Assembly: GCA_945861645.1 (NCBI GenBank)
Contig: CAMAVZ010000018.1
Coordinates: 1 to 37,836 of the forward strand
Source: Opitutus sp. GAS368
GTDB taxonomy: Bacteria > Verrucomicrobiota > Verrucomicrobiia > Opitutales > Opitutaceae
DNA: 37,836 nucleotides
Direction: 5' to 3'
Shown here piece by piece: positions 5,579 to 25,043 of the stretch (positions are counted from its first letter, which is position 1; the number at the start of each line of letters is the position of its first letter). A program made the translations under genes and the position numbers. The notes below the pieces were generated by a model, which worked only from the letters and a program-made list of their open reading frames with translations, was not told the DNA's origin and ran no database searches.

Positions 5579-6424
5579 ATGCCGACTTTACTCGAAATTA
5601 TTAAACGCAGCACTGACTTTCTAGAAAAGCGTGGGGTGGCGTCGGCACGGCTTGATGCGGAGTTGCTTCTGGGCCATGCGCTGGGCTTAAAGCGGATGCA
5701 GCTTTATTTGCAATTTGAGCGGGCCCTCAGCGAGAGTGAGCTGGAGAAGATTCGCCCATTGGTGGTGCGCCGCGGCAACCGTGAACCTCTGCAGCATATT
5801 GTGGGCGAAACGGAATTTTTGGATTTAAAGCTTAAGGTGGATAAGCGCGCGCTTATTCCCCGTCCTGAGACGGAATATTTAATCGAATTGATCACGCCAC
5901 GCTTGGCCGTGGCGCCTGAGCGGATTCTCGATTTGGGCACGGGCAGCGGCGCGATCGCATTGGCTTTGGCCAAAATTTATCCGCAGGCTGCCATTACCGC
6001 CGTGGATCAGAGTGAAACCGCCTTAACTTTAGCTCGGGAAAATGCCGCGGCTTGCGGGTTAAGCGGCCGGGTTAGCTTTTGGTTAGCTGATTGGTTTTCT
6101 GGCCTCACCGCGCAGGATCAATTTCAGCTGATCGTCGCGAATCCCCCTTATCTCACCGATGAAGAGACGCAGGCGACTGAGCCAGAAGTGAAAGATTTTG
6201 AACCCACCATGGCGCTTTCGGCTGGGAAAAATGGCGCGGCGGCACTGGAGAAAATTATCCGCGATGCGCGAACTCATCTAGCCAGCGGCGGTTTGTTGGC
6301 CTGCGAGACGGGCATCACCCAGCATGCCGAATTGCAGGAGCTGGCCGCCACCTTGGGGTACGCGCGGCTCGAATCTTTACAGGATCTGACCGGGCGCGAT
6401 CGCTACCTTCTAGCTTTTCGGTAG
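5579..6424 (+). CDS. prmC: Release factor glutamine N5-methyltransferase
   Basis: EPLQHI, LIPRPETE, DLGTGSG SAM motif, NPPY; 2 bp after prfA. Confidence 0.97.
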   Translation: MPTLLEIIKRSTDFLEKRGVASARLDAELLLGHALGLKRMQLYLQFERALSESELEKIRPLVVRRGNREPLQHIVGETEFLDLKLKVDKRALIPRPETEYLIELITPRLAVAPERILDLGTGSGAIALALAKIYPQAAITAVDQSETALTLARENAAACGLSGRVSFWLADWFSGLTAQDQFQLIVANPPYLTDEETQATEPEVKDFEPTMALSAGKNGAAALEKIIRDARTHLASGGLLACETGITQHAELQELAATLGYARLESLQDLTGRDRYLLAFR

Positions 6425-23138: not shown

Positions 23139-23585
23139 TTACTCCGGGCGCTTGTATTCTTTATGGCCTTCTTTCTGGAGCGCGGAGATTTTAGTAAGTA
23201 TCTCGACTACGCTTTTATTGTCACCGGCTTTCAGGGCGATTTCCACTTGGTCAAAGCCAACGATTATCTCTTTAATTTTTTTCTTATAACCAGCGATGAA
23301 TTGGTCGCGCTTATCCGCGGGAACATCGCGGGCGAGGTCAGGCGAGTACGAAAGACTTTCCTTGGTGGCAGCTTGGATCAGGCCGAGCAAGGCGAGGGAG
23401 GACGCATTTTGGGCTGGATCCGCAGCCTGCTTGCGCAATTTGCGCCAAGATTTATTGAGCGCATCCATCGATTTTTCGAGGGGCGTCTCCTCTTGCTCTG
23501 GTTTTGCTTTAGGCTCTTCGGCACGGCTGAGAGCCGGGGTGAGCGCGAGAATTAAGGTAAGCAGCGGCCGGAGGATTTTTTTCAT
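23139..23585 (-). CDS. Cytochrome b562-like periplasmic four-helix protein
   Basis: Signal peptide MKKILRPLLTLILALTPALSRA; LEKSM (Met ligand) near the mature N-terminus and QKEGHKEYK (His ligand) at the C-terminus; all-helical pattern. Confidence 0.75.
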   Translation of the reverse strand: MKKILRPLLTLILALTPALSRAEEPKAKPEQEETPLEKSMDALNKSWRKLRKQAADPAQNASSLALLGLIQAATKESLSYSPDLARDVPADKRDQFIAGYKKKIKEIIVGFDQVEIALKAGDNKSVVEILTKISALQKEGHKEYKRPE

Positions 23586-23766
23586 ATAAAGTGGTTTTAA
23601 ATTAAGCGGCTCTAAATAAAAAAGCCAGCGCAAGTCGCTTATTCTGTGCCTCCTTCTGCCGCCATGTGCGCTTCATCTATACTGGTATCCACGTTCAGCC
23701 CACCCCCCCCGTGCTCCTCGCCCCCCCGTGCCCTGACGCCATCCCTGCCCCCCGGCCATGCTTTGC

Positions 23767-23807
23767 GACGCTCTGTTTGTAATATATTATATTACAAACA
23801 GAGCGTC
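23767..23807. repeat. Perfect 41-bp palindrome (20-bp arms, 1-nt centre), copy 1
   Basis: gacgctctgtttgtaatata-t-tatattacaaacagagcgtc; the arms are exact reverse complements. Confidence 0.97.
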
Positions 23808-23867
23808 TTTTCCGCGTCATCAAACGGGGGGCTTGTATGTTATTTTTAATTAAAAGATTAAAAATCC

Positions 23868-24245
23868 ATGAATTCACTTCGTTTGCCTCGATCTGCTTTA
23901 TTGGCGGGGGATGTGGCGCTCGGCTTGCTTGAAGCGATTGAAGCGACCGCACGCGTCGCTGCGCGCAATTTAAAGAAAACTGGATTGCTGGGCACGCGGA
24001 AGCCAGTGGGTTCGACCTTACAACCCGGCGCAAAGACGCCCCTTTGGAATGAGCTGGTTAAGCAAACTCTGCCTTGGGTCCAGAAACGCGGCAGCAAGGC
24101 GCGGTTGGCGCGCTTTCTTGGCCTACCGCGCCAGCGTTTACAGGATTGCCTGAAATCGCAACGCGCTTGCCTTGATGCCGAGAGAACGTTGCGCCTGCTC
24201 TGCTGGGTAGCTGCTCGTCAACAAGGGCGAGATTTGATCCTTTGA
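23868..24245 (+). CDS. Small basic HTH-like DNA-binding protein of unknown function
   Basis: 125 aa, K/R-rich; SKARLARFLGLPRQRLQDCL fits a helix-turn-helix; preceded by an AT-rich promoter-like region and flanked by palindromes. Confidence 0.7.
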   Translation: MNSLRLPRSALLAGDVALGLLEAIEATARVAARNLKKTGLLGTRKPVGSTLQPGAKTPLWNELVKQTLPWVQKRGSKARLARFLGLPRQRLQDCLKSQRACLDAERTLRLLCWVAARQQGRDLIL

Positions 24246-24252
24246 GGACATT

Positions 24253-24281
24253 CTATTTGTAATATAATGTATTACAAACAG
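24253..24281. repeat. Palindrome copy 2 (near-identical to copy 1)
   Basis: ctatttgtaat-ataatgt-attacaaacag; 26/29 identical to copy 1 directly and 27/29 as reverse complement; offset exactly 480 bp. Confidence 0.95.
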
Positions 24282-24299
24282 GCCCCCGTGATTTTTGCG

Positions 24300-25043
24300 T
24301 TAAGGACCAGTCGGGGGGTGGGGGGGATTTTGGCGCAGGCGATAGGCCGCGGCAAAGAGGGCGAGCATGGCGGTGGGGCTGAGGGAGGAGCCGGGACGTT
24401 CGCACCAGCTGATCGGTCGGGCGATCACGGGCAGACCAGCCGCGCGGGCGCGCAGAAGTAGCTCGAGGTCAAAGGCGAAGCCGGCTTCACGCCACACACT
24501 GGAGGCGTAAAAAGCACGGGGGATAATTTTTAGGCCGCATTGAGTATCGGTAAACTTAAGGCCGAGCCAGAGCTGCACCCAACGATTGAATACGCGGCTC
24601 CCGATTCGGCGGTGCCAAAATCTGGTGACTGATTTATTAGTCGCCGCCGTCCGCACCCCCATAAACACGGCGGGCTGCTGGGCCGCCTGCGCTTGAGCAA
24701 TCAGCGCCGCTACTTCCGCGGCGGGCGTGGCGCCGTCCGCATCGACAAAGGCGAGCCAAGCTGCCTGCGGAGCGGTCGCCCAACCGGTGCGAATCGCATG
24801 TCCTTTACCGCGATTCTGCGGGTAGCTCTGCATGGGCTGAAGCGACGGGTAATCACCGCGCAGCTCAGCAATTTTTGCTGCAAGCCAATGCTGTTCACTC
24901 TCAGGGGAGCCGTCCACGACGACTTGGATGCGCACCTGACCGGCGTTCGCTATAAGAGCGGCGCAGAGCGGCGGCAGAAATTCAATCAGCCGTTTACCGT
25001 CGCGGTAACTGGGAATAACCAGGAGGGTGTCTGCTTGATTCAT
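24300..25043 (-). CDS. GT2 glycosyltransferase, polyprenyl-phosphate glycosyltransferase (DPM/DPG synthase)-like
   Basis: LVIPSY, VVVDGS, NRGKGHAIRTG, FVDADGAT, DTQCGLK, FAFDLELL. Confidence 0.88.
   Translation of the reverse strand: MNQADTLLVIPSYRDGKRLIEFLPPLCAALIANAGQVRIQVVVDGSPESEQHWLAAKIAELRGDYPSLQPMQSYPQNRGKGHAIRTGWATAPQAAWLAFVDADGATPAAEVAALIAQAQAAQQPAVFMGVRTAATNKSVTRFWHRRIGSRVFNRWVQLWLGLKFTDTQCGLKIIPRAFYASSVWREAGFAFDLELLLRARAAGLPVIARPISWCERPGSSLSPTAMLALFAAAYRLRQNPPHPPTGP

Follow-up and report, generated by a model that had tools for sequence, protein, structure and literature searches.

A palindrome-bracketed gene for a predicted Xre-type helix-turn-helix protein and its dispersed candidate cognate sites in Opitutaceae

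REPIN-RAYT systems are a known case in bacteria in which a repeat population, inherited vertically, depends on a link to one single-copy protein. MatP/matS, RTP/Ter and ParB/parS are site-specific chromosome-organising pairs, and the Xer/dif site is a 28-bp sequence (11-6-11) that is bound by XerC and XerD and whose modules move or invert. Here, we describe a locus of Opitutus sp. GAS368 at which the gene for a 125-aa protein is bracketed by two copies of a palindrome, an architecture comparable to that of REPIN-RAYT which, to judge from the sequence and from structure prediction, would be built on a plain DNA-binding protein. The window (the whole stretch of 37,836 nucleotides that was analysed) is contig C18 of the assembly of this genome, here called G000 (2.30 Mb, 116 contigs, 84% complete).

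The first site (site 1, 23767-23807, unstranded) is a perfect 41-bp palindrome in the gap between a cytochrome b562-like gene and the divergent ORF, with arms of 20 nt each that are 100% complementary, 1 nt in between and the core TTTGTAAT-ATATTAT-ATTACAAA (23776-23798). From its end to the ATG of the ORF (23868-24245, + strand, 125 aa) is 60 bp, and the perfect 41-bp palindrome that an earlier note on this DNA had seen here was confirmed. The second palindrome copy (site 2, 24247-24281, unstranded, core 24256-24278) begins 1-8 bp past the ORF stop, between the convergent ends of the ORF and of a GT2 glycosyltransferase gene; it was claimed as a near-identical copy 480 bp from the first, and is a direct copy with 86% identity at a start-to-start distance of exactly 480 bp. 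Site 2 is itself palindromic, its arms being 12 nt long, 92% complementary and separated by 5 nt. Within the window, TTTGTAAT-N7-ATTACAAA has 2 matches where 0.01 is expected, and two or more matches occurred in 0/100 shuffles. Both neighbours, the cytochrome b562-like gene on the left (23139-23585; PF07361, E 1.5e-11) and the GT2 gene on the right (24300-25043; PF00535, E 1.8e-7), lie outside the unit on the - strand, opposite to the ORF, as had been read from the sequence at first. The 7-bp core had also been described as asymmetric, which did not survive for site 1, where this stretch belongs to the perfect palindrome and the sole asymmetric position is the centre base; site 2 has one mismatch within the 7 bp.

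A sigma-70-like promoter match, TTGCGA-16-TATTAT (23763-23790, + strand), has the centre of site 1 as its -10 hexamer, and a second promoter-like match lies over site 2 (24277-24250, - strand), both being consensus matches only (2 in the region vs 0.6 +/- 0.8 in shuffles). An AT-rich imperfect inverted repeat, ATTTTTAAT-N-ATTAAAAAT (23841-23864, unstranded), abuts the ORF ATG and is present in G000 and in G004 (L014), and no Shine-Dalgarno-like sequence is evident before that ATG. Contigs from RNA libraries among the public runs cover 23773-24158 and 24015-24187, which is not proof of transcription. Just outside both palindromes lies a C-rich/G-rich inverted repeat (23699-23718 and 24303-24322; 20 nt, 80% complementary), which may be due to chance and whose right arm lies within the last GT2 codons.

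The ORF protein is single-copy in G000 and contains no His and no Tyr, so it is not an HUH/Y1 enzyme, and PF01797 was not found in G000 (84% complete). Pfam gave 0 families at E <= 0.01, hence no match to the HTH_3 clan, and precomputed Pfam domains were absent from the 120 homologues listed. In the AF2 model (mean pLDDT 75), a long helix at the N-terminus (8-37) is followed by four helices within 58-118. Foldseek matched it best to 2ef8, the R-M controller C.EcoT38IS (probability 0.99, E 0.11, 72 columns), followed by Xre, HigA, HipB, SinR and CI, and for residues 54-125 the top rows of VIA were all Xre-like, with Z <= 6.3, which the tool rates as middling, and rmsd of 2.4-3.6 over 62-69 residues. 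Both structure searches group residues 54-125 with HTH domains of the Xre/lambda-repressor type, a fold of five helices, and the predicted HTH domain covers about residues 55-120; this agrees with the HTH-like character claimed from the sequence, at the middling Z values given.

The protein is also predicted to form a homodimer, with a score of 0.66 against 0.00 for the best of 3 controls, a mark reached by 20/30 proteins solved as one-chain pairs and by 1/23 solved as single chains; as Xre dimers are common among solved structures, this result may be due to resemblance to them. Contact agreement among the runs was at least 47% and partner pLDDT at least 63. The predicted interface comprises residues 56-63 and 101-115 and includes the family-invariant T57, W60, N61, D103, E105, R106 and L108, the conservation of which would be explained by the dimer interface, so that a catalytic role is unnecessary. 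The homologues form 163 clusters at 90% identity and at least 152 at 50% identity. All named 90%-identity clusters are called 'hypothetical' except one JGI 'transposase-like protein', and their source organisms are given as Opitutaceae, Lacunisphaera and Verrucomicrobia.

Of 24 other genomes in the genus, 23 carry homologues, as many as 8 in a single genome, and 0/16 other genera of the order do so. A profile search of the taxonomic family found them in 44/101 sampled genomes and 31/63 genera, and by these sequence searches the protein family has been found, so far, in Opitutaceae only. The association of gene and site was scored, as the earlier note had advised, at 25 loci from 12 genomes of the genus and 20 loci from 17 genomes of other genera. 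Sites of the family type, GT-N3/4-TAWTA-N3/4-AC, adjoin the gene at 43/45 loci, on both sides at about 36, in agreement with the statement in that note that motif and protein family recur in Opitutaceae. Within the genus, a site lies beside the gene at 24/25 loci and on both sides at 22/25 when asymmetric sites are counted: strict palindromes stand on both sides at 16 loci, asymmetric 'hybrid' sites on both sides at 2, and a palindrome downstream with a hybrid upstream at 4, while one locus has degenerate sites only, one a downstream site only and one no site. For the other genera the corresponding figures are 19/20 beside the gene and 14/20 on both sides. Inverted doublets of sites form larger hairpins at L019, L020, L027 and L030. 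At five loci of one subgroup (L029, L031, L034, L039 and L041), the TAA stop codon lies inside a GTAAC half-site, and the palindrome downstream encodes the C-terminal tail ..HPGNL with its left arm.

All site types share the plan GT-N3/4-TAWTA-N3/4-AC, with the AT-rich centre TAWTA in common, and their arms differ between paralogues; the half-site types seen include GTAAT, GTAACG, GTAACC, GTAATC, GTAGTC, GTTCG, GTCACC, GTCACG, GTCATA, GTCAAC and GACACG, and the two sites flanking one gene match each other. The recognition helix, which is nearly invariant among closer homologues, goes with the half-site as follows: ..DCLK with GTAAT or GTAACG; ..VCLK with GTAGT at seven loci in two genera (G024, G009, G001, G012, G006 and G120); ..DFL with GTAACC at L042, L082 and L090, a fourth ..DFL locus (L037) being without a site; ..EFL with (G/T)TCACG at four loci; ..QLL with GTCATA at two; and xRxRIxxYF with GTTCG at three. 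L019, L020 and L034 have a common upstream flanking gene, yet both helix and site type differ among them. As a correlation across these sequences, the half-site is shown to track the recognition helix among paralogues; gene and flanking sites are linked and co-inherited, so this co-variation could in part be shared descent.

The pattern is enriched in genomes of the genus when hits are set against reversed-pattern controls, with 56/7 (hits/controls) in G001, 55/0 in G012 and 49/4 in G017, counts that are not independent as the genomes are related. It is not enriched in G021 (9/11), the sole genome of the genus without the protein, and likewise not in 16 other genera. The genome with 8 paralogues, G015, has 94 sites vs 2 control hits, and 43 among the first 50 sites listed are of five types, each type being found beside a paralogue of this genome. 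Six among the same 50 are the non-palindromic hybrid GTAACG-TATTA-ATTGAC, which flanks two paralogues (L034 and L041) with the recognition helix HRQRLHECL(K/R); such asymmetric sites fit a simple homodimer poorly. The complete genome G008 carries only 5 cognate-type sites, along with 3 of types without a paralogue there; the family is present in further single-contig records, G063, G094, G118 and G136.

The genome-wide count of the motif that the earlier note had called for was made in G000 with the degenerate core and at most 2 substitutions, and gave 16 copies on 12 contigs, all intergenic, that is, 14 further intergenic places besides the two sites flanking the ORF. They are of one type only, alongside the one paralogue. 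The family consensus begins GCTCGGTTTGTAAT and lacks a terminal GTAG tag, GTAG occurring only within the GTAGT half-site type, and the core TTTGTAAYATAWTRTRTTACAAA is conserved as sequence, not merely as pairing. Self-complementarity reaches offset 18 and is at background level from about offset 19-21. The outer arms (offsets 12-18) vary between copies yet remain self-complementary, as at offset 13, where 13/16 copies are paired (GC 6, TA 4, CG 2, AT 1), and two copies have matching one-base deletions in both arms. From these compensatory changes and symmetric deletions, we infer that palindromy itself is maintained, by selection for a hairpin or cruciform or by arm-to-arm copying, which a dimer reading the duplex would not explain.

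Several arrangements of more than one palindrome were also seen. Downstream of an M50 peptidase gene, two palindromes stand at a distance of 156-157 bp without an intervening gene (G000 C74, 1242/1398), an arrangement conserved in G016 (C173). Tandem arrays with a 90-bp period occupy a divergent intergenic region in G004 (L052 1515-1730) and G016 (C154 13759/13849); the array in G004 has three copies, the entire 90-bp unit being repeated.

The reading that we favour, and hold to be probable, is that the dimeric HTH protein binds its cognate palindromes, regulates its own gene by way of the two flanking sites and is coupled to a dispersed population of sites that evolves together with it. Each Xre-type HTH of the homodimer would read one half-site GTAAT, at positions 4-8 on either side of the AT-centred palindrome centre, so that one dimer would span two half-site centres about 12 bp apart. 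The upstream site covers the likely -10 element, and binding there would repress transcription of the gene itself, while the downstream site at the stop codon may serve as a second anchor, for looping, as a roadblock or as a terminator. Protein and sites, as the correlation shows, diversify jointly into separate pairs, and the genome with eight paralogues accordingly has several site families. A protein with cognate sites, or with repeats bound genome-wide, was among the possibilities raised at first, and is supported, at the level of sequence, by the 16-copy family, by the bracketed homologues and by the co-variation of helix and site. Most likely, then, the locus represents a sequence-specific HTH protein with cognate sites; the dispersed site population could be a new class of intragenomic repeat system.

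A bolder proposal, which we put forward tentatively as possible but on balance doubtful, is that the palindromes are REPIN-like replicators without HUH enzymes: the cognate HTH dimer would have them copied and homogenised and keep them self-complementary, and orthogonal protein-site pairs would coexist within one genome. The dimer might act by stabilising cruciform or hairpin intermediates from which template-switch copying is primed; alternatively, it might recruit a host recombinase. Should the sites indeed spread, there must be a route for short palindromes that is nuclease-free or depends on the host.

Comparison of close relatives bears on whether anything at these loci moves. The cassette has the same place and orientation in three close species (G000, G004 and G016), site 1 is conserved in G004 and G016, nearly all sites of G004 and G016 whose flanks exist in G000 sit at the orthologous place, and the gene is oriented in the same way to its flanks wherever orthologous loci were compared. 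Some cassettes have flanking genes in common across genomes and are thus inherited vertically. At orthologous sites of the three species, 489/506 core positions are identical to G000, as are 284/308 positions of the outer arms and 1831/2288 of the flanks; the sites thus exceed their flanks in conservation (97% vs 80%), which points to constraint or homogenisation. At longer distances, comparison of sequences indicates that solo sites turn over and are lineage-specific: the DivIC-UDPGP spacer has a site in the G000 group and none in G008, G012 and G015.

Junctions were compared in three settings. No GT2 orthologue at E <= 1e-20 was found in 5 genomes of the genus for an empty b562-GT2 junction; the YidC junction in more distant genomes has other genes and no site, and is uninformative on insertion borders; and no clean presence/absence junction of a solo site was found among G000, G004 and G016, the L067 region of G016 being replaced, not simply filled. 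Assembled contigs of four public runs, a weak test, showed no inversion or excision joint of the cassette. These contigs break at the palindrome, one crosses site 2 unchanged, and the only joint seen is that of another two-site locus.

The mobile or invertible mini-cassette that the earlier note had proposed is not supported here, as place and orientation are fixed, the symmetric core gives no direction and no joint was seen in the weak test of the contigs. That note had set a fixed synteny and orientation, a lack of association between homologues and palindrome, and a protein that is not an HTH against its proposals; fixed synteny and orientation were found, and the homologues are associated with the palindrome and the protein is a predicted HTH. 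We consider it improbable that the palindromes are recombination sites for a trans-acting host recombinase of the tyrosine/Xer type, at which small gene cassettes move or invert, in the manner of the dif modules of Acinetobacter plasmids, with the HTH protein as cargo or accessory. Against this, the cassette and nearly all solo sites keep their positions in G000, G004 and G016 and gene orientation is constant in all orthologous comparisons; the sites, being symmetric save for one centre base, have no polarity, the joined form was not seen in the contigs of the 4 runs (weak), and the co-variation of helix and half-site is left unexplained. In its favour are the TAWTA centre common to all types with varying arms, the existence of hybrid sites, the lineage-specific solo sites over longer distances (DivIC-UDPGP spacer) and two other G000 cassettes that are bracketed by sites.

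The first of these (C5 73861-74709; L001 1362-2210) lies between two palindrome copies 826 bp apart and holds a 153-aa ORF of low GC3 between PrmC and YidC. No Pfam match was found for this ORF, and its N-terminus has a 9-bp tandem repeat encoding (AAV)n. G016 has this cassette as well, and so does G004, where its sites are degenerate. The second (C24 5526-6475; L009) is an 860-bp VapBC-like insert, with a PIN protein (5601-6029) and a small partner (6033-6287), that is missing at the same place in G016 (L058); its left flank is the palindrome plus about 20 bp, and its right flank a diverged duplicate of the same roughly 45 bp. In view of these two bracketed cassettes, the sites may have some role in recombination.

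The dimeric HTH protein with its co-evolving sites must also be set against an ordinary autoregulated Xre transcription factor with a small regulon, in which solo sites are operators and the downstream copy a second operator or a terminator, a reading that we regard as unlikely. The predicted Xre fold, the upstream site that overlaps a promoter-like match and the conserved site cores would all suit it, and there are known phage-type Xre repressors whose gene has operators on either side. The positions of the sites do not suit it. Around the 16 sites of G000, gene arrangement, read from mechanical ORFs, is tandem at 8, convergent at 4, divergent at 3 and unknown at 1 (a contig end), and no preference for promoters is shown, so that a classical regulon is not evident. 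The adjoining genes are housekeeping genes, mutually unrelated and without a functional theme, among them those for lipoamide dehydrogenase, PFK, galactokinase, PfkB, TauE, UDPGP and an aminotransferase, and in addition DEAD helicases, YidC, PrmC, an M50 peptidase and OEP. Further against it are the up to 8 paralogues with private site types per genome, with about 94 sites in G015, and the switch of entire site populations in type along with the protein. The solo copies, moreover, are extended, compensated palindromes of 35-41 bp, which suggests copying and not independent evolution of operators. Zur/Fur-type or LexA-type boxes were dropped as candidates because no such regulon appears in the flanking genes and the site type varies with the HTH protein.

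A main role of the palindromes as hairpins of RNA or single-strand DNA (for example bidirectional terminators or REP-like mRNA stabilisers), with the gene merely between two of them, is highly improbable: site 1 as RNA has a strong predicted fold (-28.6 kcal/mol on the + strand and -29.4 on the - strand, z about -9.3 to -9.4), outer-stem changes are compensatory and 10/16 sites follow a gene end at a distance of up to about 160 nt, but the core is conserved as sequence beyond pairing, the stems lack a following T-tract, an Rfam scan of 23500-24500 gave sub-threshold miRNA-hairpin matches only and thus no family, sites adjoin the gene at 43/45 homologue loci with a type that tracks the protein, and hybrid sites are unable to form a hairpin. 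An intrinsic terminator reading of the palindromes was dropped on the missing T-tract.

If the favoured reading of a dimeric HTH protein with co-evolving sites holds, it proposes a function for a family that lacks Pfam matches and comprises at least 152 clusters at 50% identity. It would also supply natural orthogonal protein-site pairs with a code that may be readable from co-variation (D/V with GTAAT/GTAGT, EFL with CACG, QLL with CATA), pairs that could find use as orthogonal repressors. The literature searches that were made yielded no account of such a protein together with its palindrome.

Among described systems, the Xre/lambda-repressor family, C proteins and phage repressors resemble the ORF protein in the predicted fold, the predicted dimer and the presumed palindromic target, in likely autoregulation through a promoter-overlapping site and in a specificity that has diversified among relatives. 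They differ in that no R-M, toxin or prophage genes stand beside the ORF, in the site at the stop codon and in at least 14 scattered solo sites with compensated outer arms. An R-M controller (C) protein was rejected on the neighbours of the ORF, which are b562 and GT2 and not restriction and methylase genes, and on sites that stand on both sides, not as a C-box upstream only. An Xre-type antitoxin of a TA pair was rejected as well, the unit holding one gene and no co-transcribed toxin.

The chromosome-organising pairs resemble the ORF system in being small dimeric binders with 10-25 palindromic sites per chromosome and a gene beside one site. In contrast to MatP/matS, RTP/Ter and ParB/parS, several mutually distinct paralogue-site pairs are present here per genome, and the complete genome G008 has only 5 sites of the cognate type. 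The dif modules of Acinetobacter plasmids, as far as the published description of them goes, are likewise modules of 1-2 genes, including toxin-antitoxin pairs, bracketed by XerC/XerD pdif sites that are short and have inverted arms and a short centre; the elements described here, however, belong to the chromosome and keep their place and orientation from one relative to another, and their sites are symmetric and of a type that tracks the enclosed protein. An integron cassette, which would stand in an array beside intI and have attC sites, imperfect palindromes with extrahelical bases, was rejected: the sites occur one by one across 12 contigs, the locus has no array and the palindrome is perfect.

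REPIN-RAYT differs from the present system in its protein and in its repeats. Its HUH Y1 transposase (RAYT, PF01797) has no counterpart in the ORF protein, for which an Xre HTH is predicted; there is no general GTAG tag at the repeat end; and the palindromes here are perfect and AT-rich, have a core conserved in sequence and reach lower copy numbers. GTAG REPs of Opitutus terrae, in the portion of the source that deals with them, have short stems of 6-9 bp (PMC3733652), and their overlap with the GTAGT-type sites is, on that description, unlikely. The likeness is nonetheless extensive, to the extent that the same source describes these repeats: a single-copy gene stands between extragenic palindromes of its own, which are also dispersed in intergenic DNA; several protein-repeat pairs occur per genome and the gene is inherited vertically; and the repeats number in the tens, with inverted doublets that form larger hairpins (PMC3733652).
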